Shown here one piece after another: positions 23,255-50,936 of a stretch of DNA of 56,193 nt. A program made the position numbers and the translations under genes. Each line of letters begins with the position of its first letter. Positions within the stretch are counted from its first letter, which is position 1. The stretch is from a virus (taxonomy: Duplodnaviria > Caudoviricetes): positions 1-56,193 of the IMG/VR virus record IMGVR_UViG_3300020198_001070; one strand, 5' to 3'. The notes beneath the pieces were generated by a model. It made no database searches, was not told where the DNA came from, and worked only from the letters and a program-made list of their open reading frames with translations.

Positions 23255-24332
23255 AATTAGAAAAATAATAGTTGAAGCAACAAAAGTATATGATATAACT
23301 GTTCCAGAAACCGAGTGTTTTTTTGCAAATGATATGTTGGTTCACAATTGTGAAATTTTACTTCCTACTAAACCATTTAAACGATTGGATGATGAAAGTG
23401 GCAGAATATCACTCTGTACCCTTGGCAGTCTGAATTGGGGTTCGTTTAGAAACCCAGAAGATATGCGTAGAGCTTGTAGAATTCTACATAGAAGTTTAAA
23501 TAATATTCTTGATTACCAGGACTTCTTATCAATACAAAGTAAATTAAGTAATGATGAAATTAGACCAATCGGAATTGGTATTACTAATTTAGCATATTGG
23601 GCAGCTAAACGTGGGTTTAAATATGGTGAACCTGATATGTTGGCCGAAGTTAAAAGTTGGATGGAACATCAAGCATACTACTTAACTGAATCCAGTGTTG
23701 AATTAGCCGAAGAACGTGGTCCGTGTTTACATAGTGATAAAACCAGATATGGACAGGGTATATTCCCTTGGGAATTACGTGCAGCCGGTGTTAATGAATT
23801 AACAGATTTCACCCCCGAATTACCTTGGGAACCATTACGTGACAGAATAAAAGTAAGTGGTGTTCGCAATGCCACACAAATGGCTATTGCACCAGTTGAG
23901 AGTTCTAGCGTTGTAATAAATTCAACTAATGGAATTGAAATGCCAATGCAATTAATCCAAACTAAAGAATCTAAATCTGGGTCATTAACACAAGTAGTTC
24001 CAGAATACCACAAATTGAAAACCAAATATCAATTATTATGGGAACAAACTGATTGTATCGGATATTTAAAAACAGCTGCTGTTTTAGCTGCTTTTACCGA
24101 CCAATCAATCAGTACCAATACTTTTTACAATCCTGCACATTTCCCAGATAGAAAAGTGCCAACAACATTGATTGCTAAAAACTTAATGTTAGCTCACTAT
24201 TTTGGGCTAAAAACTCTGTACTATTCGCTCGTAAGCAAACAAGGTAGTAAAGTAGATGATGTTGTTGACTTACCAAGAGGTGTTGATATCAATGACGATG
24301 ATGAAGATGAATGTATTGCATGTAAATTATAA
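23247..24332 (+). CDS. nrdA: RNR alpha C-terminal gene, starting with a 34-aa split-intein C-fragment (23247..23348)
   Basis: VYDITVPETECFFANDMLVHN|CEILLPTKP; LKTLYY; C-terminal CIAC. Confidence 0.95.
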   Translation: MIKIRKIIVEATKVYDITVPETECFFANDMLVHNCEILLPTKPFKRLDDESGRISLCTLGSLNWGSFRNPEDMRRACRILHRSLNNILDYQDFLSIQSKLSNDEIRPIGIGITNLAYWAAKRGFKYGEPDMLAEVKSWMEHQAYYLTESSVELAEERGPCLHSDKTRYGQGIFPWELRAAGVNELTDFTPELPWEPLRDRIKVSGVRNATQMAIAPVESSSVVINSTNGIEMPMQLIQTKESKSGSLTQVVPEYHKLKTKYQLLWEQTDCIGYLKTAAVLAAFTDQSISTNTFYNPAHFPDRKVPTTLIAKNLMLAHYFGLKTLYYSLVSKQGSKVDDVVDLPRGVDINDDDEDECIACKL

Positions 24333-30375: not shown

Positions 30376-33300
30376 ATGGCAGTAAAAATAGATGGTTCAA
30401 AAGCTATCGTTTTGTGGTTGACAAATGACCACCATAAAGGAACCTTAACAAAAAATCATGGTATTTTATACGTTAATGGTACCGCAAACGGAGAAAGAAA
30501 ACTTGGTGAAAGAAATGATAAAGACTTATCAGGACTAACCCCAATAAATGCATACGAAGACAGATACCTGTCACAACAATCTTCATTATTCGAAGATCTT
30601 CACGCATCTCTTATCGTGGTGTATGATAAAACATCCACAAATGTAAAAGTAAAAGTAGATGATAACGTCAGAAAATTTATCCATGACCTTTATTTAAAAG
30701 GGCTTATTCCATTTGATGGGTTGTTTCCTGGACACCAAGAACAGGGTAACAGAGAACTTTTATTAGGGTATACTGACCATATCCATATGGATATCCTAAT
30801 TGATGTTATTAAACAATTTTTTAATGTAAAACATTCATTCAACACTATTAAACCAGTCGTTCTTAGAGAAATTCAAGAACCAGTGGTTAATGAAGTAGTT
30901 GATATTTTACTTAATAAAAAAGTAGCATTGCTAGCCGCATATGCAAGTTTTGGTAAAACCATAACCGCATTACAAATCATTTCGAAAGTATTACCAAATG
31001 GCGGTATTGCATTATTTACTACCCCAATCGTTGATACACTTCAATCACTCATCAATAATGTAGGCACATACCATTTTGGTGATAACAGAAATACGTCTAT
31101 TACATTTCTTAATGAAGCAGATTATGCCAAAACATCAATAAAAACATTACAAAAAAGAAAAAAGAATGGCGAAATTATACTTATTGGACTTAGTGTACAA
31201 GATTTAAGATATCAAGATGAGATATCTGATCAAGATAGTATTCGTGTCAAATATGCAAACTTGACCAATAATTTAGATTTGTGGGTATGTGATGAACGTC
31301 ATTTCCAATATGAAGGTGTATACACTAATAAAAAACTTTCAAATATATCAGCAACATATACATTAGATTTGACTGCAACACCGTATGATGTTCTAGACAA
31401 ATATGACCCATCACAAATCGTGTCTAGAACATTAGCATGGGGTATGATAAACCGCGATATATCTGATTTACCTAAGCTGGTTTTAGAATCATTTGATACG
31501 CCATTTTCAAATGTAGTAAGCAATGTTGCAGATATGTTTTCCGAAGAAGAAGGATTTTCACCCATCAAATTGTTTGCATTGAAAAACAATAATTTTGTTT
31601 ACAAATCAGAACTATTAAAAATTTGTGATTTAATGTATTACAATTCACTTAGTAAGAAAAAAAATCCACTAAGTATTGTTAATGATGTTGATTTAAGTGA
31701 TGTATCAAAAAATTGTGGATTATGGTTATTACCGATGGGGAGTGAAAACGTTTCATCCTCTGAATATATTCCAACCCTTGCATATGTTTTAAATAATTCA
31801 CAATCACATACGTTTTTTATATCAAGTTATGATTTAGAAGGAATGGCAAAAAATGCATCCTTCAAAAGCATAAGTCATGTAGTTGATTCATTACTACAAA
31901 CACATAAAAGAATTATTATTTTAACTTGTAGAAAATTTACAACTGGTACAGATATCCCAGCATTAGGTCACATTGTAATGTTTGATAAAATGGAGAGTGT
32001 CTCAGCATTTGAACAGCTACTAGGCAGAACTATTCGGTTGTACCCTAACAAAGATGTAGTCAAAGTTTATTCATTGGCACCTGGATATTCTATCAAAACC
32101 ACACTTGGAAAAATCGCGTTATATAATGAAACACTTGGCCGTGGATCAGGATTAGAATTACTAGAATCAGTCAGCCTATCCTCATATGATTTGGAAAATG
32201 CAAAATCAACACATGACCCAATTGATATTTTGGAAAATGCGCGTATTTGGTGTGAAAATCAAATTAATAATAACAAATTACCATCTGGTCAATTAGAAAA
32301 TGTAGTTGACTCATTTGTTAAATCAGAATGGGCGGATTTAAATTTAATAACCCACAAACCAGTTACCAATACATCAGTTGATCTAAGTAATGACAATGGT
32401 GCTAAAAACAAAGAAACCCCAACGAATAAACCAAAATATAATAAAGATAGCTTAGAAGCTAAAATAATGGATAGTATTCAAGCTATTTTTGTAGAAGCAA
32501 CCTGGGTAGCATACATGCTAAAATCATATGATTATAATGTTGTTTTAAATTCAGATAGTTTGATTAATTTTTTTGGTAAAGACCTTTTAGATGCTGTCAC
32601 AACAACTGCAGATAATAATGAAAAATTTCGTACTATGTTAAATAAAAATATGCTTGATAAAAAATTGGCGTTTGAATTATTAGACATCGATAAAGTATTA
32701 GACAAAATTTTTATCAACAACGAAATGAAAGCAAATAAAGGGTTGGTGTTTATCAATGCCGATCTGTCAAATAGATTACTTGATGAATTAGACGACATTG
32801 AACCACCAAAATCAATTTTGATTTTCAATGCATTGAATGGGTGTTTACCAATTCAAGTACAAAAAAAATACCCAAACGCCAGTATAGTATGTGCAGAAGT
32901 TTTTGACTTGTTCAAAGATTCCTTAACAATACAAGGGTTTACCGTAATAGATTACAAGGATGTAATAAACATGATCAATACAAATAATATACCAAAATTT
33001 GATGTAATTATACAAAACCCCCCATATCAAAAAAACGATAACGGGCATGGTAGTAGCGCAACAGCTATCTACCAAGATTTTGTTGATATCGCAATTGAAC
33101 TTAAACCATCGCATATTGTGTCGGTCATCCCGTCAAGATGGATGACCGGTGGCAAAGGTGCAAGATTAAACAATTTTAGAAAAAGAATGGCCCAGGCCAA
33201 CAGTTTTAAAGTATTACATGATTTCCACAATTCTTGTCATTTTTTTCCAACGGTCGTGATAAAGGGTGGAGTGTGCTATTTTAGATGGGATCTTAATTTC

Positions 33301-33948
33301 AACGGTGATTGCAAAGTCATCGAACATTATATAGATGGGACGTCGTCTGAAACATATAGACCATTATTTTTACCAAATATGGCCACTGTTATTCGTTATA
33401 ATGAAGCAATTGATATTTTAAATAAAGTACAATCGCATAATGAACCATCTATTGTTAGCAATATGCCTGTTCGTAATATGTTTCCATTTGAAACAGACTT
33501 TTTAGGTGATACCACCCCAACAGCTGACCCAGTAACTTTTTATGGACAAAAAGTAGTGAGTACAGTAGATCGGTCAACTATTACAAAAAATATCTATTTT
33601 GTGTATTCACATAAAGTGATTGTGACAGAAGCGGTTGGTAACGGTACCGGTGTGGGTGATAAAATAAATCCAATTTATGCCGGTCCAAATACGTGTTTTT
33701 CGAAAACTTATATACCATTGGCCGAATTTAACACAGAAAAAGAATGTCGTAATTATATGTCATATATCAACACTAAATTCTTCCACTTTCTGCTTACCTT
33801 AAAAAAGTATACACAGCATACTTCACAAAAAGAATATAGTTTAATACCAGTTCAAGATTTTACTAAAGCGTGGACTGATGAAGAATTATTTGAAAAATAT
33901 GATATTTCAGAAGATGAAATAAATTTTATTACTCGGATGGTGAAATAA
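30376..33948 (+). CDS. SF2 helicase fused to an Eco57I-like adenine methyltransferase/target-recognition region
   Basis: ASFGKT, CDERH, LTATP, TGTDIP, QLLGRTIR; DVIIQNPPY, VIPSRWM, KGGVCYF. Confidence 0.8.
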   Translation: MAVKIDGSKAIVLWLTNDHHKGTLTKNHGILYVNGTANGERKLGERNDKDLSGLTPINAYEDRYLSQQSSLFEDLHASLIVVYDKTSTNVKVKVDDNVRKFIHDLYLKGLIPFDGLFPGHQEQGNRELLLGYTDHIHMDILIDVIKQFFNVKHSFNTIKPVVLREIQEPVVNEVVDILLNKKVALLAAYASFGKTITALQIISKVLPNGGIALFTTPIVDTLQSLINNVGTYHFGDNRNTSITFLNEADYAKTSIKTLQKRKKNGEIILIGLSVQDLRYQDEISDQDSIRVKYANLTNNLDLWVCDERHFQYEGVYTNKKLSNISATYTLDLTATPYDVLDKYDPSQIVSRTLAWGMINRDISDLPKLVLESFDTPFSNVVSNVADMFSEEEGFSPIKLFALKNNNFVYKSELLKICDLMYYNSLSKKKNPLSIVNDVDLSDVSKNCGLWLLPMGSENVSSSEYIPTLAYVLNNSQSHTFFISSYDLEGMAKNASFKSISHVVDSLLQTHKRIIILTCRKFTTGTDIPALGHIVMFDKMESVSAFEQLLGRTIRLYPNKDVVKVYSLAPGYSIKTTLGKIALYNETLGRGSGLELLESVSLSSYDLENAKSTHDPIDILENARIWCENQINNNKLPSGQLENVVDSFVKSEWADLNLITHKPVTNTSVDLSNDNGAKNKETPTNKPKYNKDSLEAKIMDSIQAIFVEATWVAYMLKSYDYNVVLNSDSLINFFGKDLLDAVTTTADNNEKFRTMLNKNMLDKKLAFELLDIDKVLDKIFINNEMKANKGLVFINADLSNRLLDELDDIEPPKSILIFNALNGCLPIQVQKKYPNASIVCAEVFDLFKDSLTIQGFTVIDYKDVINMINTNNIPKFDVIIQNPPYQKNDNGHGSSATAIYQDFVDIAIELKPSHIVSVIPSRWMTGGKGARLNNFRKRMAQANSFKVLHDFHNSCHFFPTVVIKGGVCYFRWDLNFNGDCKVIEHYIDGTSSETYRPLFLPNMATVIRYNEAIDILNKVQSHNEPSIVSNMPVRNMFPFETDFLGDTTPTADPVTFYGQKVVSTVDRSTITKNIYFVYSHKVIVTEAVGNGTGVGDKINPIYAGPNTCFSKTYIPLAEFNTEKECRNYMSYINTKFFHFLLTLKKYTQHTSQKEYSLIPVQDFTKAWTDEELFEKYDISEDEINFITRMVK

Positions 33949-34544
33949 TGCTAGACCATATTATAAACCATTGTAGAAATCATGAATTTATGTCTGGTGT
34001 TGAACGTGACCAAAAACGTATTACCAAAACAGCAGAAGTGTTCACACCATTAAAATTAGTCAATGATATGCTTGACTTATTACCACCAGAAGTATTTACT
34101 GGTGAATCATCAAACTTTCTTGATAATTCGTGTGGTGATGGACAATTTTTATCAGAAATACTTATCAGAAAAGTATCAAATGGCATCCCGTTTGAACAAG
34201 CATTATCTACTATTTATGGAGTAGATATCATGCAAGATAATGTTGCTTTATGTAGAAATAGATTATTATGTGGACAGGAACAATATAGACATATTGTAGA
34301 AAACAACATAGTCTGTACTGATGCATTAACTTATCATTACGCGTTTAATGGGGATATTGAGCCTAAAGTTGATTTATTGGCCCACTTAAACCCACCAGTA
34401 AAAGTGAAAAAACCAAGAAAAACTAAAGATACCACAACCGTGAAAAAACCAAGAAAAACTAAAGATACCACAACCGTGAAAAAACCAAGAAAAACTAAAG
34501 ATACCACAACCGTGAAAAAACCAAGAAAAAATAAAAAAGATTGA
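33948..34544 (+). CDS. DNA methyltransferase SAM-binding half with basic repeat tail
   Basis: AEVFTP, FLDNSCGDGQFL, IYGVDI; no NPPY motif. Confidence 0.8.
   Translation: MLDHIINHCRNHEFMSGVERDQKRITKTAEVFTPLKLVNDMLDLLPPEVFTGESSNFLDNSCGDGQFLSEILIRKVSNGIPFEQALSTIYGVDIMQDNVALCRNRLLCGQEQYRHIVENNIVCTDALTYHYAFNGDIEPKVDLLAHLNPPVKVKKPRKTKDTTTVKKPRKTKDTTTVKKPRKTKDTTTVKKPRKNKKD
34404..34530 (+). repeat. 36-bp tandem repeat, 3.5 copies, encoding VKKPRKTKDTTT
   Basis: GTGAAAAAACCAAGAAAAACTAAAGATACCACAACC repeated exactly. Confidence 0.95.
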
Positions 34545-34798: not shown

Positions 34799-36700
34799 AT
34801 GAAAAAAAAAATAATTGGCATTGATTTAGGAACTGGTGTATCTTGTGTTTCAGTTTTTGAAAATGGAACATATAAAATCATCGAAAATTCAGAAGGGTCT
34901 AGAACTACCCCAAGTGTAGTGACTTATACTGATACTGAAATTTTAGTCGGAGTTGCGGCAAAACGACAAGCAATTTCAAATCCAACCCACACCATTTACG
35001 AAATTAAAAGATTAATTGGTCGTAAATTTAATGACAAAGAAGTCCAAAATAGTATCAAATCACTTCCATATAAAATAATTGAAGCTGAAAACGGTGATGC
35101 TTGGATAGAAGTTAATGGTAATAAAATTTCACCACAGCAAGTCTCTGCTGAAATCCTTCGAAAAATGAAATCTACTGCAGAAGAATATTTAGGGCATGCA
35201 GTTACTGATGCCGTAATTACAGTACCTGCATACTTCAACGATGCACAACGTCAGGCAACTAAAGATGCTGGAAAAATAGCTGGATTGAATGTAGAACGTA
35301 TTATTAATGAGCCAACTGCCGGGTCCCTTGCGTTTGGTCTGGATAAACAATCATCAACCGATAGAAAAATTGTTATTTGGGATACTGGGTCCGGTACTCA
35401 TGATATTTCGGTAATAGAAATATCAAACATTGATGGTGAACATCAGTTTGAAGTTATTTCAACCAATGGTGATTGCCATTTAGGTGGGACTGACTTTGAT
35501 AATAGAATTATCGAATTTTTAAATAATGAATTCAAAACAGAAACTGGTATTAATTTGCTAGATGATGTTATCGCACTACAAAGACTGAAAGATGCAGCCG
35601 AAAAAGCAAAAATAGAACTATCTAATACATTACAAACTGACATCAATCTGCCATATATTTCAGCAGATAATACTGGTCCAAAACACTTAACTGTGAAATT
35701 ATCTCGTTCTAAATTTGAATCCTTGATTGACGATTTAATTGATCGATCTATTGAACCTTGCAAAATTGCATTGCATGATGCAAACTTATCAATTTCTGAT
35801 ATCGATGATATCATTTTAATAGGCGGTTCAACTAGAATTCCTAAAATGCAAGAAGCGGTTGAAAAATTATTTGGTAAAGTACCAAGAAAAGATGTGAATC
35901 CAGATGAAGCTGTAGCAGCAGGGGCTGCCGTTCAAGGCGCAGTTCTCGCAGGTGACAAAACTGATGTACTATTATTGGATGTAACCCCATTAAGTTTAGG
36001 GATCGAAACAATGGGTGGGGTATTTACCAAGTTGATTCAAAAAAATACCACTATCCCAACTAAAGCTAGTCAGACCTTTTCAACTGCAGAAGATAATCAA
36101 CCGGCAGTAACAATCAAAGTCGGACAAGGCGAACGTGAGTTATATCATTATAATAAGCAATTGGGTGAATTTAACTTAGATGGTATTGCGCCGTCCCCAC
36201 GTGGGATGCCACAAATCGAAGTTACCTTTGATATCGATGCGAATGGTATCATGCATATTTCAGCGCAAGACAAAGGCACTGGTAAGAAAAATAATATTAC
36301 CATCAAATCTGATTCTGGGCTAAGTGAAGATGAAATCAATCAAATGATTAAAGATGCGGAAACCAATGCGGAATCAGATAAAAAACAAAAAGAGTTGATT
36401 GAAGCACGTAATGGTGCAGAATCACAACGGCATAGTCTGCAAAAAGATTTTAATGATGTCAAAGATCAACTGACGGATGATGAACGTGCAGCATTTGAAG
36501 AAGCAACTTCTACCTTAGAAGAAGCAGTAAAAGGGGACGACGTTGAAAAAATCCAAGAATCTGTTTCTAAATTGTTTGAAGCAGCATCACCAGTTTTTGC
36601 TAAAAAACAAGAAGCTGAACAATCAACGAAAGACTCGGCAGGTGAATCTGATGAAGAATCAATCGACGCAGATTTTACAGAAGTTGACCCAGCGGAATAA
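34799..36700 (+). CDS. dnaK: Hsp70 chaperone DnaK
   Basis: [46 protein letters not shown]. Confidence 0.97.
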
Positions 36701-36773
36701 AAATAATACAATATATGTGTGGGGTGCTCAAGGGAGACCCCACCTTTTTCTTGCTTATGAAAGGAGAATTAAA

Positions 36774-37211
36774 ATGACACAATACAAACAACAATTAAGA
36801 ACAATTACCTCGTTAGATGCAGCAGCTCTTAGTAGAGCGTTAGTTGGATTTGATAGAATCATCAGTAGTAAATTAAATAGTACACAATCTAATTACCCAC
36901 CACACAATATACTCAAATATAATGAAACAAATTATGGTATTGAATTGGCAGTCGCAGGATTTAGTAAAGAAGAAATCAAGATCACAGTAGATCAAAATAT
37001 CTTATCTATTAACGGCGAACGTACAAACCCAATTTCAGAAGGCATTGAATTTTTGCACCGTGGGTTGGCAGCACGAAATTTCGTTGTTGAATTTCCATTG
37101 GCAGAATTTATGGAAGTCCGAGAAGCCGAGGTTAACAACGGAATTCTTAGGATTAGCGTAGAATACATCGTACCAGATGAACTCAAACCACGTCAAATTG
37201 AAATAAAATAG
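36774..37211 (+). CDS. Small heat-shock protein (Hsp20/IbpA-like)
   Basis: AAGGAG RBS; NYPPHNI, ELAVAGF, FLHRGLAAR, NGIL, PRQIEI. Confidence 0.92.
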   Translation: MTQYKQQLRTITSLDAAALSRALVGFDRIISSKLNSTQSNYPPHNILKYNETNYGIELAVAGFSKEEIKITVDQNILSINGERTNPISEGIEFLHRGLAARNFVVEFPLAEFMEVREAEVNNGILRISVEYIVPDELKPRQIEIK

Positions 37212-37218
37212 TTTTTAA

Positions 37219-37243
37219 TATGGGGAAGTCAGACTTCCCCATT
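37219..37243 (+). terminator. Hairpin after hsp20
   Basis: ATGGGGAAGTC-A-GACTTCCCCAT. Confidence 0.55.
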
Positions 37244-37262
37244 ATATCAGGAAAATATAATA

Positions 37263-37562
37263 ATGTCAGATGTAAAATTTGAAGAATCAGTAAGTATCAA
37301 AGTTACTGAACCTAAAAAATGGAAGGTTATTATTTTAAATGATGATCATACCCCACACGCGTTTGTGATTTCGCTACTAATCGATCTTTTCCGTCATGAT
37401 GTCCAAAGCGCAACTGCCGTAACTACACAAGTCCATGAAACTGGGTCAGGCATTGCTGGAATTTATGATTTTGAAATTGCTGAAGTAAAAGCGGTTGATG
37501 CTACTAAACTGGCACGAGAAAATGGATTTCCATTACAAATTAAAATTGCGCAAGATGATTAA
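37263..37562 (+). CDS. clpS: ClpS N-degron adaptor
   Basis: KVIILNDDHTP..FV, QVHETG, FEIAEVK, ARENGFPL. Confidence 0.92.
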   Translation: MSDVKFEESVSIKVTEPKKWKVIILNDDHTPHAFVISLLIDLFRHDVQSATAVTTQVHETGSGIAGIYDFEIAEVKAVDATKLARENGFPLQIKIAQDD

Positions 37563-37578
37563 CTTTTAGAGAACACAG

Positions 37579-38115
37579 ATGAGTTTAAAAGAATATACCA
37601 AAGATTTACATACAGAAATAGAAAAAACACAGTTTGCAAAACTGTTGCTTTCTGGTAACATCACACCTGCACACTATACCAACTACTTATATCAACTGTT
37701 GCTGGTATATTACCCAATTGAATTTGGTGCAAAAATGGTAGGGGCGCTGGATAATTTACCTGGATTGGAAAGGTCTGCACTTATTCTTGCAGATTTTGGT
37801 GAATTATCAGATACGCAATATAACGGGAAGTGGTGTCCAGCAACAATCAAATATCATAATTACCTGATTGATCTCATCAATGATGTTGACCGTCGACCAT
37901 TGATTAAAGCGCATTTGTATGTTCGTCACATGGGTGATTTATTTGGTGGGCAATATATTGCCAAAAAAGTGCCAGGCAGTGGTAAAATGTATCAGTTTAC
38001 TGATATGGACTTGCTGAAAACCAATATCAGAAGTTTAGCAACTGATGAATTAGGTGATGAAGCAAGAATTGCATTTAAATGGTCCATCGATATTATGAAT
38101 GAATTATATGAGTAA
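37579..38115 (+). CDS. Heme oxygenase (HemO/Ho1-type)
   Basis: LKEYTKDLH..IE, AHLYVRHMGDLFGGQ, EARIAF. Confidence 0.9.
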   Translation: MSLKEYTKDLHTEIEKTQFAKLLLSGNITPAHYTNYLYQLLLVYYPIEFGAKMVGALDNLPGLERSALILADFGELSDTQYNGKWCPATIKYHNYLIDLINDVDRRPLIKAHLYVRHMGDLFGGQYIAKKVPGSGKMYQFTDMDLLKTNIRSLATDELGDEARIAFKWSIDIMNELYE

Positions 38116-38794
38116 TGTGTGGGATACCTTAGCTAAAATTCAAGTTTATTTTGAATCCGCGTTAAACAATTATGGTACCGAAATCCAAGAACCAGGGCTA
38201 GATAAATTTAATCAACCAGCCTGGATTAATAAAGTATGGACCAGTGAAGTTTTTAGACGTGCACATTTATGTGTGGTTGATGCCAGAGAAACAAAAGGGG
38301 TGTGGATGATGCATTGCTGCATCTTTCCGCATATTCACAACCCAGCCCCTATATTCGGGTTTGATGTTGTTGCTGGAAAAAACAAAATAACAGGTTGCTT
38401 CGTTGATTATAGTCCAGCTGGTGACCCATACCATCCATTATTGGAATGGTTTGGACAGATTACGCATGATTTACTCTGGAAAAAAACGAGAGAATTACCG
38501 GAATGGGGCAAAAGAATTTTCAGTGAAAACATGGTTGCAGCAAGTAATGTACAAACCGATCTCGAACTACAACAAATTTACGATGTAGCGACTAATGGTA
38601 TAGAATACTATTTAGTGGATGTCGGTGATACCAATGATACAGCCGACGACACAGCAGAGTCACAAAACTTATATACATCAAATCAAAAACTTAACCCACA
38701 TACACCAAAAGTAATGACATCGCTAGGGTTGTTCGATGATGATGTCACTACTTTTATCAACGAATGTTTATTCCCATCAATAATTAAAGTATGA
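38108..38794 (+). CDS. Ferredoxin-dependent bilin reductase (PcyA/PcyX-like)
   Basis: FRRAHL, MMHCCIFP, PIFGFD, DYSP, RELPEWG.RIFS, NQKLNPHT; coupled to heme oxygenase. Confidence 0.85.
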   Translation: MSNVWDTLAKIQVYFESALNNYGTEIQEPGLDKFNQPAWINKVWTSEVFRRAHLCVVDARETKGVWMMHCCIFPHIHNPAPIFGFDVVAGKNKITGCFVDYSPAGDPYHPLLEWFGQITHDLLWKKTRELPEWGKRIFSENMVAASNVQTDLELQQIYDVATNGIEYYLVDVGDTNDTADDTAESQNLYTSNQKLNPHTPKVMTSLGLFDDDVTTFINECLFPSIIKV

Positions 38795-38846
38795 GTTAAT
38801 TCATAAATATCCCCCATTAAATAAAACTACATAGGGAGCATATTTT

Positions 38847-39335
38847 ATGAGTAAATTTGTAGGAATTTTAATGTTATTTGTAGCTACATCATTGTATGCT
38901 GCTGAATTACAACACACTTTCAATAGCCCAGCATTTAGTGGTATTGGGTATAGCAACCACGTTTTAACTTTACAGCAATTAGAAACTCAAGCAAGTGATA
39001 AAAATAAATCAGCTGCTGATGCGATAATTGCAAAAGCAGCATCAGAAGCGGCAAATACCCCATCTGCTAAATTCTTAGCAAATGTAGAATCTAGAATATA
39101 TTCACAACTTGCAAAACAATTAACTGATAGTCTTTTTTCAGAAGGTTCATCTTGCACAGTTGGTTCTGGAGTTTGTGGAGCAATACCAGATTTGGGTGGT
39201 AATAATGTCACTTGGCAAATGACTAATCAAGTAGTCAATGGCGTTATCCAACAAATGATTAAAATTGATATTACTAATAATTCATCTGGCCAATCGACTA
39301 GTATGTTAGTTCCAGCTGGAGCTTTTTACTTTTAA
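38847..39335 (+). CDS. csgF: Curli assembly protein CsgF-like
   Basis: Signal peptide then ELQHTFNSPAFSG; SRIYSQLAKQL. Confidence 0.75.
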   Translation: MSKFVGILMLFVATSLYAAELQHTFNSPAFSGIGYSNHVLTLQQLETQASDKNKSAADAIIAKAASEAANTPSAKFLANVESRIYSQLAKQLTDSLFSEGSSCTVGSGVCGAIPDLGGNNVTWQMTNQVVNGVIQQMIKIDITNNSSGQSTSMLVPAGAFYF

Positions 39336-39344
39336 CGGCGCATT

Positions 39345-40169
39345 ATGAAAAAATTATTAATAGTAACAACAATTATCTTTTTACAGGGATGCGCTACAGG
39401 AAGTTCAATTCACAAACTCATAACCGGTGAACAGTTTGATGATCCAGTTGTTGAACAATCTAAATTTTTACAAAAAGAAGAAAACTGGTTGGCACCTCCA
39501 GTTGGTGGACCTATTCCAATTGCAGTGTATGGGTTTCAAGACAAAACTGGTCAACGTAAATCAATACCAAATATCGCAAGCCTTAGTTCTGCAGTGACAC
39601 AAGGAGCTGAAAACTATTTAATAAAATCATTAAAAGATGTCGGTGATGGTAGATGGTTCATTCCAGTTGAGCGTGTTTCATTGGAGAATCTAATAAAAGA
39701 ACGACAAATGATTAGACAAGCACGAGAATTTTTCCAAGGTAAAGATGCACAACCATTACCAGCAATGACGTTTGCTGGTGTGATGGCCGAAGGTGCGATT
39801 GTTGGTTATGATAGTAATACAACAACGGGTGGTGCTGGTGTAAGATTTTTTGGTATTGGTGGAGAAACACAATACCAAAGCGATACAGTAACAGTAAGTT
39901 TAAGAATTATATCAATCACATCTGGTGAAATATTAACTTCTGTTATTGTTACTAAAACCGTATTAAGCTACATGGACAAATTAGGTGTATTACGTTTTAT
40001 CGCATCTGATGCAAAAGCGATTGAAGCTGAAGTAGGTGGTAGTATAAACGAAAGTATTAATAGAGCAACTAATAAAGCAATTCAAGCTGCTGTTATTGAT
40101 ACAATCAAAGATGGAGCAAAGAAAGGACATTGGGCATTTAAAGATATACCAAATCCTTATATAAAATAA
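39345..40169 (+). CDS. csgG: Curli secretion channel CsgG lipoprotein
   Basis: Lipobox LQGC; AVYGFQDKTGQRK, SSAVTQGA, VER..LENLIKERQ, EGAIVGYD. Confidence 0.9.
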   Translation: MKKLLIVTTIIFLQGCATGSSIHKLITGEQFDDPVVEQSKFLQKEENWLAPPVGGPIPIAVYGFQDKTGQRKSIPNIASLSSAVTQGAENYLIKSLKDVGDGRWFIPVERVSLENLIKERQMIRQAREFFQGKDAQPLPAMTFAGVMAEGAIVGYDSNTTTGGAGVRFFGIGGETQYQSDTVTVSLRIISITSGEILTSVIVTKTVLSYMDKLGVLRFIASDAKAIEAEVGGSINESINRATNKAIQAAVIDTIKDGAKKGHWAFKDIPNPYIK

Positions 40170-40207
40170 AGGAGCGTGGTTAAGGCAACTTAACTAATGT
40201 AAATATT

Positions 40208-40996
40208 ATGAAACGAACAACCATAAGTTTAGTAGTAACATCGTTATTTGTTAGCCAAGTTGCATTAGCAACTAATACAGGACAAAATAACGTATATATA
40301 GAACAAGTTGGCAATGCTAATACTATCACGATTGACCAAATAGGTGGAACTAACAATGTAGGTGGAGTAACTACTACAACATTAACATATGGAAATGATA
40401 ATGTTATATCTGCATTCACCCCAACAGCGGCTAGTGCACTAAATTATGCAACTATAACAGGAAGTTCTAATATTGTTACTTTGAGTCATACTGGTGACAA
40501 CAACTGGGCACAGTACAATATCAACGGTGGAACTAATACCTATTCAAGTACAATTATTGGCAGTAGTAATAAAACAAAATTAACTATTGGAACTTCTGGC
40601 CAGAATGGTGCTAAAAGTGATAACATTATTACTGAAATAATTAATGGTGATTTAAACTATTTGATTCAAACACTAACAAAAGGAAGCATTAATAGTTATA
40701 ATGAAATGATAGGTAATAGCAATCAAATTACCACTCGTTTAACTAGCACATCAGGTGATGTTCATACAACGGTTACAGGAAGTAATAACTCATTGATAAA
40801 TGAACAAGATGATGGTGGAACAGGTCATCAATTAACACAGGAAATAACTGGTGGTTATAACTCTATTGTTACACAACAACAAGGAACAAATGATTCAGTT
40901 ATTAATATTAGCACATTAGGTGACCATAATAGTATTACTGTGCGTTCTACAAATTCATCTAGTATTGTTAATTCAAATATAGCTGTATCTAGATAA
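40208..40996 (+). CDS. Secreted curlin-repeat-like protein
   Basis: Signal peptide; N-x-x-x-x-x-Q-x-G-x-x-N type repeats (IEQVGNAN, QQQGTND). Confidence 0.7.
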   Translation: MKRTTISLVVTSLFVSQVALATNTGQNNVYIEQVGNANTITIDQIGGTNNVGGVTTTTLTYGNDNVISAFTPTAASALNYATITGSSNIVTLSHTGDNNWAQYNINGGTNTYSSTIIGSSNKTKLTIGTSGQNGAKSDNIITEIINGDLNYLIQTLTKGSINSYNEMIGNSNQITTRLTSTSGDVHTTVTGSNNSLINEQDDGGTGHQLTQEITGGYNSIVTQQQGTNDSVINISTLGDHNSITVRSTNSSSIVNSNIAVSR

Positions 40997-40997
40997 A

Positions 40998-42083
40998 ATG
41001 TTGTGGATATTACTTTTTTTATTACCTTTAACTTCCTATGCAGATATAGGTTCTGTGTCAGAAGTTAATGGTTCTGATTGTAATATAGAACGAAATAAAC
41101 AAAAATTATCTGGTATTAAAGGTTCTTCTATTGAATCAATGGATATCTATATAACAGGTGGTTGTGTTAGTAACATTACATTTAAAGATGATACAAAAGT
41201 TAAAATTAACGAAAATAGTAGACTACTGATTGATGATTTTGTATTTGATCCAAAACAAAGTGATGCTGGTAAATTAGCATTAAAGGTCGGTATGGGAACA
41301 GTAAGATATGCATCAGGTCAAATAGCAAAAGCAAATCCACAACAAGTGGGTATAAAAACCCCAACTGCTGCAATTGCTGTTCGTGGCACAGATTTCACTA
41401 TGACAGTTGACGAAGCTGGTCAAAGCTTAGTTATGTTGATCCCTAGCTGCAAAGATGAAGCCGACGTAAAACAATATGAATTACAAGAAAATATATGCAA
41501 AGTTGGTAAAATAGAAGTTGAAAATTCAGCTGGAAAAGTTGTGTTAGATAAAGCATTTGAAGCAACATACGTCCAAAGTGAAACAACGATGCCTAGTCCA
41601 CCAACAATTGTCAATACGGTTGAATCAAAAATTAATAATTCATTAATTCTTGCTAAACCAATTGAAGTGCAACGTGCAGTAAAGGAAGCTAATAAATCTC
41701 CAAAAGATAAAGAAATGGAGGAATTAGAAGCTGAAGCTGGAAGACGTTTAAGTGCACAAGTTAAGCAATCCCAAGATGAAATTGACCAAGCTCGTGTCAT
41801 AAGATTAATGGAGCTTGCTGGATTACTTGGATGTAATGCAATATCCAGTGTTTGTGTTTCATGGGATAAACCAGATGCTGAAATGCAATTAAAAGGAAAA
41901 GGAATAGCATTTAGATTTTCACCTGATAAGCATTATGCAGAAATTAAAACACAAGGATTTGATTCAAATACTAGCATATCCGTAATTCAAGATGATATTC
42001 CAGCATCAACAATTATAGGTTCAGGTGATCCAGGTGGTAATATTGTTAATATTAAACAAAATAGTGGTGTATTAAAAAAATGA
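40998..42083 (+). CDS. FecR-domain periplasmic protein
   Basis: ITFKDDTKV.INENSRL.ID, GTVRY.SG, KTPTAAIAVRGTDF. Confidence 0.8.
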   Translation: MLWILLFLLPLTSYADIGSVSEVNGSDCNIERNKQKLSGIKGSSIESMDIYITGGCVSNITFKDDTKVKINENSRLLIDDFVFDPKQSDAGKLALKVGMGTVRYASGQIAKANPQQVGIKTPTAAIAVRGTDFTMTVDEAGQSLVMLIPSCKDEADVKQYELQENICKVGKIEVENSAGKVVLDKAFEATYVQSETTMPSPPTIVNTVESKINNSLILAKPIEVQRAVKEANKSPKDKEMEELEAEAGRRLSAQVKQSQDEIDQARVIRLMELAGLLGCNAISSVCVSWDKPDAEMQLKGKGIAFRFSPDKHYAEIKTQGFDSNTSISVIQDDIPASTIIGSGDPGGNIVNIKQNSGVLKK

Positions 42084-43192
42084 TTAAATTAATAGTGTTA
42101 TTTCTAATGTCATTTTCAGTATTTGCTACTTCATTTACTGATATTAAATTTGGACAATCACAAATAGCTGATAGTCAGTGGAACGTAAGTGCTTGTATGT
42201 ATACATCCACATGTCAAATTTATAGTAAAGCACCAGGAACTGCATATAAAATACCGTGGACATCTGGTAGACTTAGCTGGGCAACTGGAGATTATGTTGC
42301 ATTCGTTGCAACAGGAAATACAGCAAACCCTTGGCAAGCAATACAATATAATAGTAGTGGCGTTCAAAAAGCAGTTATGGGAAATGGTCATATTATTAAT
42401 ATGGGCACCAATTACTTATTTTTTGTTGGATACGATAATAACACTGGTCAATTATTTTCACCAACAACAGGAATGAATAGTTCTGCAGGGGTAACTTGGA
42501 CTGGAACATTAAATCCATCAGTTTCACAACTTAATACTGCTGCATCTAGTTGGACAACAGCACCGTTGTCACCTGGACAAACATATACAGCTGTTTCTAG
42601 TTTATGTTGTGGTGGAAGTAGTTCATCATTTACAGCAAATACCACTAATACATCAAAAGTTAATACATTCATCACCAGAACATCTGGTGATGATAAAGTC
42701 ACAGTAGAACAAATTGGATCCACTAATAGTATTATTATAGACCAATCTGGTACACCCAATAATTACACAAAATATTATAGTAATGGTGATTATAATTCAA
42801 CTACTATTTCACAATCTTCGTCTAGTACATCTGCCACGAATTATACTGAACTTTCCTTGGTTGGTAGCAATAATAATATTTCATTAACACAACAAAGTTC
42901 TGGTGGTATAAAAAGTGCATTTGTTGATATTGCTAATAACAATAATTCAGTTACATTATTACAAAAAGATAATGGGAATCATTATGCTGATATCACATTA
43001 TCGGGTGGAAATAAAACAGTTGATGTATCACAACAGGGATCTGGAAGTCACCAAGCTAGTGTAACATTATCTGGTCAGCCTTCTTCATTGAATTTGATTC
43101 AGCGCGGAAGTTCTACACAATTTTATTCAATAAATTTCAATTGTGCAACATCAGGTGGGTGTGTCGCAATTCAAGTTCAACAAGGTCAATAA
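42080..43192 (+). CDS. Secreted protein with C-terminal curlin-like repeats
   Basis: Signal peptide; VEQIGSTN, DQSG..N, SQQGSG repeats. Confidence 0.7.
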   Translation: MIKLIVLFLMSFSVFATSFTDIKFGQSQIADSQWNVSACMYTSTCQIYSKAPGTAYKIPWTSGRLSWATGDYVAFVATGNTANPWQAIQYNSSGVQKAVMGNGHIINMGTNYLFFVGYDNNTGQLFSPTTGMNSSAGVTWTGTLNPSVSQLNTAASSWTTAPLSPGQTYTAVSSLCCGGSSSSFTANTTNTSKVNTFITRTSGDDKVTVEQIGSTNSIIIDQSGTPNNYTKYYSNGDYNSTTISQSSSSTSATNYTELSLVGSNNNISLTQQSSGGIKSAFVDIANNNNSVTLLQKDNGNHYADITLSGGNKTVDVSQQGSGSHQASVTLSGQPSSLNLIQRGSSTQFYSINFNCATSGGCVAIQVQQGQ

Positions 43193-43231
43193 TAGATAAA
43201 TACAATGCTAGACAACTTATAGGAGAATACT

Positions 43232-43306
43232 ATGATTTGGGGGATACCTACGTACAACGATATTAGATTGGGATTTGAAGTCACCTGTTATATCAGTAAT
43301 CGTTAG
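43232..43306 (+). CDS. pqqA: PQQ precursor peptide PqqA (24 aa), not in the ORF track
   Basis: AGGAG RBS at 43221; MIWGIPTYNDIRLGFEVTCYISNR matches the W-x-x-P-x(3)-D-x-R-x-G-F-E-V-T-x-Y-x-x-N-R PqqA pattern with ExxxY. Confidence 0.9.
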   Translation: MIWGIPTYNDIRLGFEVTCYISNR

Positions 43307-43347
43307 TTAAATGGTGCATTACTAGCACGTTTAACTATAAGGTTATT

Positions 43348-44220
43348 ATGACAGTCTTAATATTGACTAAACAAAAAGATTCAGATTATGAAACTACAAA
43401 ACTTTTAAACAGTTTTATTGAAAAAAATATTTCCGTCAAAATTTGTTATTTTAATAGATTTGATATTGTGATAAATCATGGTATTTTTTATGATGGTGAA
43501 CGGATAGATAACCCAAAAATAGTACTTGTGAGACTTGGTGCTGGCATTACTCGAGCAGAATTATCAGTGATACGTTTTTTTGAATTGATACAGATTCCGT
43601 GTTATAATACAAGTGATAGTATAAATCTAGTTCAAGATAAATTCCAAACAAGTGAAATATTGGCAGCAGTGAACATCGCTGTTCCACATACGATGGTTGT
43701 TAAAACGCCAGTTAGAAATAATATAGTAAAAGATACTATTGGATTTCCGTGCGTCCTTAAAGTAAATGTTGGTAGTTTTGGAGAAGGCGTATATTTGTGC
43801 CATTCTGAACAAGAGTTTTTGAATTTAATCGAATTCGTTGATGCAATACACAATGAAAAAACATTAATTGCTCAAGAATATTTAAGTGATAAACCAGGAA
43901 TGGATTTACGTGTATTCGTAGTTGGTGACAAAGTTATCGGTGCAATGAAAAGAATTGCCCCTAAAGGTGACTTTCGTGCTAATATAACACATGGTGGAAC
44001 TGGTGAAGAATTTAAAGTTTCAAAAGAAATAGAAGAAATTGCTCTTAAAACAGCAAAAGTTTTAGGTTTAACTATTGCAGGAATAGATCTACTATTTGAT
44101 GCCCGTGGGTTTAGGGTTTGTGAAGCAAATTCAAATCCAGGGTTTATTGGGTTTGACAAATATTGCAATACTGACATAGCAAATGAAATAACATCATTTA
44201 TTATTAGTAAAATTCAATGA
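43348..44220 (+). CDS. rimK: RimK-family ATP-grasp ligase
   Basis: DKFQT, GSFGEGV, QEY, DLRVFVVG, DFRANITHGG, AGIDLL, CEANSNPG. Confidence 0.88.
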   Translation: MTVLILTKQKDSDYETTKLLNSFIEKNISVKICYFNRFDIVINHGIFYDGERIDNPKIVLVRLGAGITRAELSVIRFFELIQIPCYNTSDSINLVQDKFQTSEILAAVNIAVPHTMVVKTPVRNNIVKDTIGFPCVLKVNVGSFGEGVYLCHSEQEFLNLIEFVDAIHNEKTLIAQEYLSDKPGMDLRVFVVGDKVIGAMKRIAPKGDFRANITHGGTGEEFKVSKEIEEIALKTAKVLGLTIAGIDLLFDARGFRVCEANSNPGFIGFDKYCNTDIANEITSFIISKIQ

Positions 44221-44221
44221 C

Positions 44222-46267
44222 ATGATTAAAAAAATAATTGTAAGTCCTTGGACGGCATTGTTAACATTATTGCTGGTTATCAGTGTTCGAATATCAGACC
44301 CTGTGTTTGTCGAAAGCATTAGGTTACGGTATTTTGATACGTTAATCACATCCAAACCTACCACAGAAAATAACATATTTACAGTTAATATTGATGAAGA
44401 ATCTATCAACCAATATGGACAATGGCCATTTAAACGTGATATATATGCAAACATAATACAAAATTTATACCAACATAATGCTGGATTAGTAGTATTTAAT
44501 GTATTAATGCCAGAAATAGACAGGCAGGGTGGTGATAACGTATTACAAGATGTATTATCATCATACCCAGTTATTCTACCAAATATACCATCTGATATTT
44601 CCAAAAATACCCCAAAAATACCGGGTTCAGCAGTATTAAATCCAGAATACTTAGATAGAGTTATACAATACCCAGGAATTATTGCAAATATTCCATCATT
44701 AGAAGATATTGCAGCCGGGGTCGGTACTGTTAATACATTACCGGAAATAGATGGTGTTAATCGACGGATACCATTGATAGTAACAGTCAACGACAAATTA
44801 TACCCAGCACTTAGTTTAGAAACATTACGTGTTGCGGCAGGTGATACGACATTTCAAGTAAAATTGAGTGAATTAGGTGTTGAAAAAATGCGTATACCCG
44901 CATTTGGTCCTATAACAACAGATAATTTAGGTAGAATATGGATAGATTGGAGTCAATCAGCGACCAGTATAAGTCTTTCCAATATTCCAAATGATTTGGG
45001 TGGGGCAATTGTGATAGTTGGTCCAACAGCTGCTGGAATAGGCAATCCTATACCAACAGCGAAAGGGGCAATTTTTCCACACGAAACACAAGCATCAGTA
45101 ATTGGTACTATGTTGAATAACGTAGTTATTCAACGACCTGATTACGCAGATGGTATGGAAATACTAAGTGTGTTACTAGCGGGGATGTTATTACTTGCAT
45201 TGACAAGATGGATTTATATTGGGTTACTATCAATTGTTATAGTATCTGTTGGTGCAGTTTTGGGTAGCAGGTATGTATTTTCACAGTATCTATACCTTAT
45301 CGATGTGACTTTTTTTATTAGTAGTATTGTGTTAACATCATTGCATGCATATGGTGTTAAATTTTTAAGTGAATTCTTCCAAAAACAGCAAATCAAAAAA
45401 CAATTCGGTTCATATGTAAGTCCGGTAATTGTTGAACGTTTACAAAAAAATCCTAATCTTATTAAATTGGGCGGCGAAGAAAAAATGCTGTCAGCAGTAA
45501 TGACAGATATGCGGAACTTCACGGGGTTAGGTGAAAAATATGGGTCTGATGTAGAAGGGTTTACTTCTATTATGAATGAATACATGACTACAATCAGTGT
45601 CCCGGTATTTGCAAATGATGGATGTTTAATTAAATTCATTGGTGATGCGTCTTTACATATTCATGGTGCACCATTAGATGATTCACGACACGCATACCAC
45701 GCGGTAAAAACTGCGATTGAAATGATTCAAGCAGTTGATGATTTTAATAAGCATTTGCATTCAATTGGAAAACCACCAGTTGGCATGGGGGCTGGTGTAA
45801 ATACTGGTAAAATTCTAGTAGGTAATATTGGCAGTTCTGGCAAAATGGGGTATGATGTATTAGGTGACCCAGTATCAGTAGCTAGTCGATTAGAAGGGCA
45901 AACAAAAAGTTATGGTGTATTATTATTAATTGGTCCAGATACATTTAATGATGTAAAAAATGATTTTCATTGCTTTGAACTAGATTGCATTGCTCTTAAA
46001 GGAAAATCTATTGGATTACATATCTATACACCATTGTTCAATAATGACAACTTTAACCAACCGGATGCAGAACGACATGCTTATATGATTGAAGCATACC
46101 GTGCGCAAGATTTTGACACTGCCGAAATAATGACGCGTAGTTTATTTGGTTGTTTTGGTGGTGAATTAGACCATTACTATGAATTATGGCTGGACAGAAT
46201 CAATATTATGAAAGAATTATCATTACCATCTGATTGGGATGGAATTTATCGAGCTACATCAAAATAA
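44222..46267 (+). CDS. CHASE2-domain membrane class III adenylate cyclase
   Basis: IDEESI..YGQWPF.R CHASE2, 3 TMs, MTDMRNFT, KFIGDA, YDVLGDPVSVASRLEG. Confidence 0.92.
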   Translation: MIKKIIVSPWTALLTLLLVISVRISDPVFVESIRLRYFDTLITSKPTTENNIFTVNIDEESINQYGQWPFKRDIYANIIQNLYQHNAGLVVFNVLMPEIDRQGGDNVLQDVLSSYPVILPNIPSDISKNTPKIPGSAVLNPEYLDRVIQYPGIIANIPSLEDIAAGVGTVNTLPEIDGVNRRIPLIVTVNDKLYPALSLETLRVAAGDTTFQVKLSELGVEKMRIPAFGPITTDNLGRIWIDWSQSATSISLSNIPNDLGGAIVIVGPTAAGIGNPIPTAKGAIFPHETQASVIGTMLNNVVIQRPDYADGMEILSVLLAGMLLLALTRWIYIGLLSIVIVSVGAVLGSRYVFSQYLYLIDVTFFISSIVLTSLHAYGVKFLSEFFQKQQIKKQFGSYVSPVIVERLQKNPNLIKLGGEEKMLSAVMTDMRNFTGLGEKYGSDVEGFTSIMNEYMTTISVPVFANDGCLIKFIGDASLHIHGAPLDDSRHAYHAVKTAIEMIQAVDDFNKHLHSIGKPPVGMGAGVNTGKILVGNIGSSGKMGYDVLGDPVSVASRLEGQTKSYGVLLLIGPDTFNDVKNDFHCFELDCIALKGKSIGLHIYTPLFNNDNFNQPDAERHAYMIEAYRAQDFDTAEIMTRSLFGCFGGELDHYYELWLDRINIMKELSLPSDWDGIYRATSK

Positions 46268-46432
46268 GGAACCCATGAAAAAAGAAATATGTCAACGACC
46301 GGTTATATGATAATGTCAGCTTGTTTAATGATAATAATTTTTGCAGTGACATTTATATGTTTTATACAAATAGTTTTCAGTAATATTTGGGATTGTGTAG
46401 TTGATACAAAATATCGGCTATTTCACAAATAA

Positions 46433-46516
46433 CGCTACACTTTTTGAACCACTGGTAGCGAATCAGTGGCCCAAAGGTAGTAGGCACCTGTTGCCACGTA
46501 ACAACGTACGGTCCTA
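46433..46516 (-). ncRNA. Candidate pseudoknotted RNA element
   Basis: Minus strand 12-bp stem TTTGGGCCACTG/CAGTGGTTCAAA; loop CGCTAC pairs with downstream GTAGCG. Confidence 0.45.
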
Positions 46517-47332
46517 GGCAAGTTCTTGAAGTTTGTCTTTGTACGAATCCAATTCTTGATATACCGATTTTAAAAATCTTCTATACGATTTTTCATATCC
46601 TGGTTCTGTTCGCCCACGCATCTTACTGTAATCATGCGTAGAACGGGATGCAATATTCTTTAAAAATATATTAATTCCTTGCAATTGTTCATCGGTTGGG
46701 AGTTTATATATTTTATTGATAAGTTCTACAGCGGCTTGTTGACCATATGCGGCAATTTCATCAGGTTGGGATTTGTAAATTTCACGAGCTTTAATTTCTT
46801 CATCGGTGGTAGCAAACTTGTCCTGAACCAATGCAGTAAAAAATTTCACTTTCTCCCGTTCTATATACCCATGTTTATATTCATACCGCTGACCTTGCTG
46901 CACCTGAAGTGCATGTGTTAACTCATGTAGAAAAATCATAGCCATTTTGTTAACAATAGCGGTTAACGCATTTTCAAAATCAGTATCACCGCTAAGTTGA
47001 TTGATTTTTATCGTTATTAGATTTGCTATCAATTTCGTTGTCATATTAATGGTGTTATTTTCTTCCAAATATGACCCAGTACCTTGTTTTAAATTCACAA
47101 ATCTAATATTAATGTCATTATTATAAGTAGTTTTAACAAATGCGGTCAACCCGGTTTTAATAGCAGAAGTAAATAAATTATTATATTTTGCTAAAAATTC
47201 AACCACCATAGGTTTTGGTAAGGTATCTTTTTTATTAAAAATCGGGGTAATTGCATCTAAAATTATAGAATTTACTTCTGGGGTTTTTTGGGATACCGAT
47301 ATTCGTTCACACAAACATTCTCGTATTCTCAT
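46514..47332 (-). CDS. HExxH metallopeptidase-like protein
   Basis: FLHELTHALQ...PDEIAAY. Confidence 0.65.
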   Translation of the reverse strand: MRIRECLCERISVSQKTPEVNSIILDAITPIFNKKDTLPKPMVVEFLAKYNNLFTSAIKTGLTAFVKTTYNNDINIRFVNLKQGTGSYLEENNTINMTTKLIANLITIKINQLSGDTDFENALTAIVNKMAMIFLHELTHALQVQQGQRYEYKHGYIEREKVKFFTALVQDKFATTDEEIKAREIYKSQPDEIAAYGQQAAVELINKIYKLPTDEQLQGINIFLKNIASRSTHDYSKMRGRTEPGYEKSYRRFLKSVYQELDSYKDKLQELA

Positions 47333-50859: not shown

Positions 50860-50936
50860 GCGCTAGTAACCCATATGGCAAGGGTGACTGCCTCTAAAAC
50901 AGTATATAGCAGGTTCAAGTCCTGTCTAGCGCACCA
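50860..50936 (+). tRNA. tRNA with CUA anticodon (amber suppressor)
   Basis: GCGCTAG/CTAGCGC-ACCA, D stem ACCC/GGGT, loop CTCTAAA, T arm GCAGG-TTCAAGT-CCTGT. Confidence 0.8.

Follow-up and report, generated by a model that had tools for sequence, protein, structure and literature searches.

A lone pqqA gene as a probable minimal auxiliary metabolic gene of a large freshwater phage

Why would a phage encode PqqA, the precursor peptide of pyrroloquinoline quinone (PQQ), next to none of the enzymes that turn it into the cofactor? The question is raised by a 24-codon open reading frame (ORF) in a 56,193-nt virus record of IMG/VR (IMGVR_UViG_3300020198_001070; the whole stretch is referred to as the window). 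The window derives from lake-water metagenomes, has 34% G+C and has a CheckV completeness of ~15%, which implies a genome of ~370 kb. The Glu and Tyr of PqqA become PQQ, and the peptide is consumed stoichiometrically. PQQ is the cofactor of methanol dehydrogenase. A preliminary description of the window proposed two roles for the ORF: it supplies the consumable precursor to the PQQ pathway of the host, or it is modified by the RimK-type ligase encoded next to it, as a new RiPP, a peptide made by the ribosome and modified after translation. We consider it likely, from sequence comparison, that the gene is a functional pqqA, a minimal auxiliary metabolic gene of a large freshwater phage closely related to the pmoC-phages of methane and methanol oxidisers, and that it feeds the PQQ pathway of the host.

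The encoded peptide (MIWGIPTYNDIRLGFEVTCYISNR) passes both PqqA models, scoring 25.5 bits against PF08042 (gathering score 21.1) and 33.8 bits, with an E-value of 2.2e-8, against TIGR02107 (cut-off 20). A six-frame PqqA search of the whole record returns this single site (31.6 bits), and the same search of 14 control genomes returns no match. The hallmarks of PqqA are in place: W3, P6, R12, G14, E16-V-T-C-Y20 and a stop 4 codons past the Tyr. The residues Trp3, Pro6, Arg12 and Gly14 fall at positions where all 144 unique viral peptides among the matches listed agree. In the sampled bacterial peptides, the leader Trp and Pro are kept in 29 of 30 unique sequences and the Arg and Gly in all 30 (unpublished genomes supplied three of the 30 source loci, and the statement is unchanged without them). 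Trp and Pro are absent from every search pattern, indicating that their conservation was not selected for by the searches. The Glu and Tyr of E-x-x-x-Y are invariant in all collected viral and bacterial peptides, although the patterns demanded both. The coordinates also confirm the AGGAG ribosome-binding site and the upstream ATAAATA of the preliminary description, and AGGAG-like words lie upstream of most of the viral pqqA copies inspected. As judged from its sequence, the ORF is confirmed as a genuine phage pqqA.

The gene is encoded on phage DNA among phage genes and is not misassembled host DNA. Its phage origin follows from the status of the window as an IMG/VR virus record, from phage-type genes in the window (lysozyme/baseplate, exonuclease, structural, ribonucleotide reductase), from a gene module that the window has in common with the phages Melnitz and HTVC008M, and from independent contigs that span the junctions. 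Two lake-water runs (X2 and X3) have contigs of ~157 kb, that of X2 including the entire window. In three further lake-water runs, contigs extend over pqqA and its two junctions with no differences; this comparison uses assembled contigs and informs on presence and junctions, not on levels. Cell-like genes are numerous in the window as well (for example, those for DnaK, ClpS, heme oxygenase and bilin reductase). Megablast of positions 38000-47000 against the phage collection gives no match, and relatives were found via protein searches.

Profile searches find no match to PqqB, PqqC, PqqD or PqqE in the window, nor in three related contigs or the complete Melnitz genome. Another complete phage genome (G414; 363,943 nt, CheckV 100%) has one pqqA and no PqqB, PqqC or PqqD; its PqqE search returns only generic radical S-adenosylmethionine (SAM) matches of at most 22.5 bits, compared with a cut-off of 381. 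As a positive control, the PqqC model matches 5 of 6 bacterial genomes; the controls before that had given no match. The absence of pqqB-E that the preliminary description noted is therefore borne out, its scope being the window and not the whole phage. The pqqA of the window does not belong to a pqqBCDE operon, and extra bacterial copies do not need one either.

Lone pqqA is widespread in viruses. We scanned IMG/VR contigs with degenerate (back-translated) DNA patterns, and the counts are lower bounds. The pattern R-[FL]-G-F-E-V-T-x-Y matches at least 120 loci; among the matches listed, 119 of 119 readable ones are short ORFs with a stop 4-5 codons past the Tyr. A core pattern of the Asp type (D-type) matches at least 119 further loci, all PqqA-like. 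Combined with 23 loci of a Cys pattern, considered below, there are at least 257 loci, at least 210 distinct 180-nt fragments and at least 118 distinct peptides. Neighbours of viral pqqA include genes for major capsid, portal, RegA, gp32, cell-wall hydrolase, M15 peptidase, HNH and ERF proteins. We considered and rejected the possibility that the matches are mislabelled host pqq operons: a PqqB-, PqqC-, PqqD- or PqqE-type domain is found in none of the 146 nearest ORFs around 79 loci among the matches listed, and in none of 62 neighbours of Cys-pattern loci from metagenomes.

A cultured example is Melnitz (141,548 nt, circular), which infects an OM43 methylotroph. Its genome has an intact 24-codon pqqA (31.6 bits; Table 1), over which the record annotates a hypothetical coding sequence on the opposite strand (76100-76195). 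The earlier remark that gene callers would usually miss such a gene thus holds for this record. HTVC008M has no pqqA match. A regular-expression scan of L002-L006 finds no pqqA, and the Melnitz copy falls outside L005. In bacteria, the PqqA pattern is found in 45 of 401 sampled genomes, at as many as 7 sites in one genome. G381, G231, G166, G103 and G215 have 4 to 7 sites, often as tandem pairs ~120-150 nt apart. Several sites per genome fit the known need for much precursor.

Viral pqqA is linked to one-carbon (C1) oxidation. Searches for pqqBCDE, methanol dehydrogenase and pmoC find none of them in the window, and find pmoC in a relative (G420) and a methanol dehydrogenase on G413 and L421. 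G420 is 72% identical to the window in csgG, 69% in the cyclase and 66% in rimK (64-72% for the module genes overall). It carries pmoC (421 bits; L422, G420:C1:11923-12633), as do G421 and G422, and its 88-kb contig has no pqqA match. The identity of the module genes together with the pmoC of G420 places the window phage next to the pmoC-phages. On other contigs the two genes occur together. PmoC is found in the examined flanks of pqqA at 11 loci, with at least six distinct sequences (L132, L146/L367/L408, L407, L386, L388, L297/L310, L329 and L133), which belong to several lineages. The pmoC gene (AmoC family, up to 408 bits) is at most 2 kb from pqqA, and Cys, Thr or Met precedes the Tyr. 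In L407, pqqA starts a few nucleotides past pmoC.

The G413 locus (L382; G413:C1:30000-46500) looks like a C1-oxidation island. Within 12 kb it encodes a PQQ-dependent dehydrogenase of the methanol/ethanol family (608 bits), a formate dehydrogenase alpha subunit (885 bits), thioredoxin, PqqA, a quinoprotein-dehydrogenase-associated SoxYZ-like carrier (197 bits) and the CHASE2 cyclase of the module, the last 58% identical over the part covered by L046. L421 is a second contig with a dehydrogenase of the methanol/ethanol family near pqqA.

On the reading that we favour, the infecting phage would make the sole component of PQQ synthesis that is consumed stoichiometrically, the precursor peptide. 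PqqD/PqqE, PqqB, PqqC and the peptidases of the host, which would be longer-lived, would process the phage peptide. PQQ-dependent methanol dehydrogenase, and hence the energy supply of the cell, would be kept running as host transcription fails. In the window, pqqA would be expressed as the first gene of a pqqA-rimK-cyclase unit, from its position between a conserved promoter-like word and rimK. For the precursor supply of the preliminary description, the comparisons thus provide support (PqqA models, widespread lone viral pqqA, complete genomes lacking pqqBCDE, linkage to pmoC and methanol dehydrogenase), by comparison and not by experiment.

Several points weigh against precursor supply. The gene would have to be expressed, its product would have to be processed by host enzymes, and the phage would have to benefit. 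The close relatives L167, L174 and L154 lack pqqA at the site, indicating that the gene is dispensable. PQQ, once made, is stable, and a short infection need not be limited by new synthesis. The core residues were prescribed in every pattern scan, and conservation of the core is therefore no independent evidence. The window, a fragment, has neither pmoC (AmoC/PmoC) nor methanol dehydrogenase. It covers ~15% of the genome, and pqqB-E could lie elsewhere in the phage; the counterpoint is the two complete pqqA-carrying phage genomes that lack pqqB-E, Melnitz and G414. Finally, Cys beside the cross-linked Tyr is unseen in real bacterial PqqA, and full competence as a substrate therefore cannot be assumed.

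The Cys of EVTCY, called atypical in the preliminary description, is indeed so. The residue before the Tyr at 86 sites in 45 of the 401 sampled genomes is Met at 80, Ala at 5 and Cys at 1, the last being the chance site L130 described below (three Met sites are from unpublished genomes, and the statement stands without them). Among the distinct viral fragments, at least 210 in number, 173 have Met there, 19 Cys, 16 Leu and 2 Thr. The Cys pattern ([DE]-h-R-h-G-h-E-V-T-C-Y) matches 23 IMG/VR loci, all PqqA-like, and 38 metagenome loci, 37 of them PqqA-like, on contigs of 0.30-0.43 G+C; the two sets overlap and their counts are not independent. In 185,579 bacterial and archaeal species (one genome each) it matches twice, and neither match is credible as a bacterial pqqA. 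One (L129/L223, G004:C1) is on a 103,585-nt contig of a metagenome-assembled genome titled Luteolibacter, where a locus of 34% G+C encodes a CHASE2 cyclase, FecR and a Cys-type pqqA. Its upstream sequence nearly matches the viral loci L151 and L153, and the contig is probably a phage contig binned into that genome. The other (L130) is a 62-aa ORF in a genome without a PqqA match, indicating a chance ORF. In these searches EVTCY is therefore found on viral or phage-like contigs of low G+C only. At least three backgrounds have Cys in one version and Met or Leu in another, with no other difference. On the peptides collected, phages vary more at the position before the Tyr, and Cys has appeared there repeatedly. 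Gly4 and Ile5 of the window peptide are rare or unseen among these peptides.

Two readings would give the Cys a role of its own. In the first, which we regard as unlikely, EVTCY would be a phage-specific adaptation, repeatedly arisen in phages of methane and methanol oxidisers, that alters handling by PqqE, either through tighter capture that outcompetes host PqqA or through a sulfur-linked product. In the second, which is slightly more doubtful, the Cys peptide would be a decoy that stalls PqqD/PqqE, or would be converted by a SPASM radical-SAM enzyme to another product (for example, a thioether). SPASM enzymes related to PqqE form thioethers from Cys. The confinement of the Cys type to viral or phage-like contigs, its absence from real bacterial PqqA and its origin on at least three backgrounds are in line with a decoy or an altered product. 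However, most viral copies keep Met (173 of the 210 distinct fragments, among the matches listed), and the position is variable in phages and is removed during PQQ maturation. Cys copies adjoin pmoC and the cyclase as other types do, which argues for the same role, and lowering the energy supply offers no obvious gain to a lytic phage.

It is improbable that pqqA is a neutral passenger, that is, a decaying host-derived remnant that plays no part in infection, or an ORF arisen by chance, although the gene is tiny and its distribution among close relatives is patchy. An E-value of 1e-8 on a 24-mer is not expected of a chance ORF, and nearly all viral loci inspected have an intact ORF that ends 4 codons past the Tyr and has a start and a ribosome-binding site. 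The leader Trp and Pro, which the searches did not select for, are invariant in the 144 unique viral peptides. The linkage to pmoC in several lineages and the identical sequence in several lake-water samples likewise argue against a passenger.

The features of the locus are listed in Table 1.

Table 1 Features of the pqqA locus in the window and of the Melnitz pqqA.
Feature	Position	Strand	Remarks
csgF-like gene	38847-39335	+	Upstream context
csgG-like gene	39345-40169	+	Upstream context
ORF of 262 aa	40208-40996	+	Upstream context
FecR-domain gene	40998-42083	+	Upstream context
Curlin-repeat gene	42080-43192	+	Upstream context
Promoter-like word GATAAATAC	43195-43203	+	Downstream of the stop of the curlin-repeat gene
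AGGAG ribosome-binding site	43220-43224	+	7 nt ahead of the pqqA ATG
pqqA, 24 codons	43232-43306	+	Peptide MIWGIPTYNDIRLGFEVTCYISNR; ATG start, TAG stop; Glu16 and Tyr20 (E-V-T-C-Y)
RNA hairpin	43296-43346	+	Runs across the pqqA stop as far as the rimK ribosome-binding site
rimK-family alpha-L-glutamate ligase (ATP-grasp)	43348-44220	+	TIGR00768; RimK and Rimk_N domains
CHASE2-domain adenylate/guanylate cyclase	44222-46267	+	Last gene of the module; phrog_35576, 674 bits
Melnitz pqqA	MZ577097.1 76134-76208 (L008:4135-4209)	+	Directly ahead of tRNA-Leu; unannotated

The ATAAATA described as phage late-type is at 43196-43202 and starts 36 nt ahead of the pqqA ATG. The word itself is present, and the label 'late-type' is not supported by enrichment. 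The word TATAAATA is not enriched in the AT-rich window (10 sites observed versus 13.8 expected). The longer word GATAAATAC occurs 3 times versus 1.0 expected, which is not significant (8 of 100 shuffles reach 3). Yet it is kept in relatives: GATAAATAC is at the equivalent position ahead of pqqA in L145 and directly ahead of rimK in L154 and L167, and L174 has the variant AATAAATAC. The word may function as a promoter, and 'late-type' is an interpretation. The hairpin downstream folds with -16 kcal/mol (z -4.14; 0 of 200 shuffles fold as well). It has no T-run, a terminator scan downstream of pqqA makes no call, and no counterpart is obvious by eye in L145. The hairpin could stabilise a short pqqA transcript or damp translation of rimK.

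The rimK stop is 1 nt ahead of the cyclase ATG. The cyclase is 39.7% identical to the Melnitz gene and 33.2% identical to the HTVC008M gene. Used as a query, it matches 69 loci of IMG/VR, several of which lie on contigs of 190-364 kb; most have csgF, csgG, FecR and the cyclase. Melnitz and HTVC008M are annotated with the same module order lacking pqqA or rimK, and most of the 69 loci show it too. In L387, L392, L411, L416, L142, L151, L153 and L046, pqqA lies just after the CHASE2 cyclase or at most 2 kb before it. The recurrence of pqqA around the cyclase module may mean that the site readily takes up extra genes, or that pqqA and the cyclase are functionally connected.

The second proposal of the preliminary description, that the adjacent RimK modifies the peptide by glutamate addition or ring closure and that pqqA and rimK form a two-gene cassette for a new product, is very improbable. 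A single promoter-like word precedes the two genes, which are separated by 41 nt. The curlin-pqqA-rimK order recurs in a second lineage (L145, L149, L150 and L409, the last on a 292,584-nt metagenome contig), in which RimK is 61% identical to that of the window and 3 of the 24 peptide residues differ. ATP-grasp ligases also act on ribosomal peptides in other systems, according to the part of PMC8939145 that we consulted; that part names both pqqA and RimK and does not link them to each other. The RimK of the window scores 224.1 bits against TIGR00768 (cut-off 143.4), 158.9 bits against PF08443 and 45.9 bits against PF18030. It scores 144 bits against the S6--L-glutamate ligase equivalog NF007764, below the cut-off of 331. 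It is also below the cut-offs of the MptN, LysX and CofF equivalog models.

The distribution of the two genes in relatives contradicts a cassette. Every lineage with pqqA has a sister without it in the RimK tree: the window pairs with L167 (95/93) and L145 pairs with L154 (95/91). The pqqA-less relatives are 75% (L167), 71% (L174) and 66% (L154) identical to the window in RimK, and their curlin-rimK spacers of ~35-45 nt contain the GATAAATAC-type word and no peptide gene. The sister pairs indicate at least two gains or losses of pqqA, with RimK retained throughout. Two of the five lineages in the curlin-rimK-cyclase clade have pqqA and three lack it; the two genes are thus not kept together. 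The rimK gene also occurs without the peptide in another setting (L158, L162 and L172), and these distant copies, like L004, have no peptide gene upstream. Conversely, among the matches listed, RimK is found in the examined flanks of none of 120 viral pqqA loci, and an ATP-grasp domain in none of the 146 nearest neighbours of 79 loci. Among the 62 neighbours of Cys-type loci, the only RimK is that of L409. In addition, the peptide retains every PqqA hallmark, has one acidic residue beside the cross-linked Glu and lacks a C-terminal Glu. Modification by RimK is therefore refuted as a general rule on these comparisons, and a lineage-specific side reaction remains conceivable. RimK looks like an incidental neighbour, and we read the position of pqqA as the use of an expressed slot with no functional tie to RimK.

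Precursor supply remains the reading that we prefer, and it can be set against known systems. The window peptide resembles bacterial PqqA in length, in the W-x-x-P leader, in R-x-G and E-V-T-x-Y, and in the stop four codons past the Tyr. Bacteria likely also have extra copies off the main operon, at sites spread over the chromosome or over several contigs. The window copy differs in that it is phage-encoded, has no pqqB-E nearby and has Cys before the Tyr.

The idea that a phage supplies the precursor is already in print. Coutinho et al. (Microbiome 8:163, 2020), as far as the accessible part of the paper goes, report a Lake Baikal viral population, VP_266, with PqqA and methanol dehydrogenase and propose a boost to PQQ. 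VP_266 is likewise a freshwater phage of a C1 oxidiser with pqqA as a proposed auxiliary metabolic gene, and G413 and L421 have the same pairing with methanol dehydrogenase. Judging from the description in that part of the paper, the window differs in lacking methanol dehydrogenase, in the curli/cyclase module by rimK and in the Cys variant. A 2026 paper, in the portion available, lists pqqA among virus-encoded phosphorus-cycling genes. These two papers are the only ones on virus-encoded pqqA that surfaced in a partial literature search. The breadth of viral pqqA, which goes far beyond what had been reported, the linkage to pmoC and the EVTCY variant are new here.

The pmoC-phages (Chen et al. 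2020, Nat Microbiol 5:1504; PMC7674155) are also large freshwater phages; G420 has pmoC, and pqqA lies beside pmoC on contigs, whereas the window has no pmoC. The main text of PMC7674155 makes no mention of pqq, pyrroloquinoline or methanol dehydrogenase. Melnitz and HTVC008M, the latter with a SAR11 host, have the module order csgF-csgG-curlin-FecR-curlin-cyclase with homologous genes, and Melnitz has a lone pqqA. Their modules differ in lacking pqqA and rimK, and the Melnitz pqqA is 20 kb away by a tRNA-Leu gene. In the Melnitz paper PQQ appears only as a medium supplement, and pqqA is unmentioned. The window ligase resembles RimK/graspetide-type ligases in being a RimK-family protein with a pre-ATP-grasp domain, and differs from them in that ligase and peptide are not kept together.

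An analogy may be drawn with cyanophages. Through psbA (D1), a cyanophage carries the component of the host energy system that is consumed fastest, and relies on the host for the remainder. The pathways are different, and psbA encodes a full protein subunit, whereas the PqqA peptide would be destroyed to make the cofactor.

Further features of the window were noted in passing. Full-length DnaK (825 bits), ClpS, heme oxygenase and ferredoxin-dependent bilin reductase are encoded consecutively at 34799-38794. The ribonucleotide reductase large subunit (20974-24332) is encoded by two ORFs with Hint/intein domains (PF14890, PF07591), which suggests one or more inteins and a break placed between positions 23097 and 23247. 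At 30376-34544, a fusion of helicase and methylase (1190 aa; ResIII, Helicase_C, Eco57I) precedes a small methylase-associated ORF and looks like a phage restriction-modification or anti-defence gene. A tRNA with the anticodon CUA (amber suppressor type; labelled Pyl by ARAGORN) is encoded at 50860-50936. Recoding of TAG was considered and rejected: TAG ends 6 of 85 ORFs and pqqA, and reading TAG as sense gives no longer ORFs. Read-through of the pqqA TAG stop would append 15 residues.

The Cys variant is a natural probe of the substrate chemistry of PqqE, and, if EVTCY were an adaptation that alters handling by PqqE, such a phage would reprogramme the cofactor chemistry of its host rather than just supplement it. 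Melnitz and its OM43 host H5P1 are in culture, which makes the idea of precursor supply directly testable. The logic would be that the phage carries only the consumed part of a cofactor pathway, and a 24-codon pqqA may be one of the smallest auxiliary metabolic genes. Because callers and annotators miss pqqA, the influence of viruses on the oxidation of methane and methanol, in lakes as in the sea, is probably underestimated.

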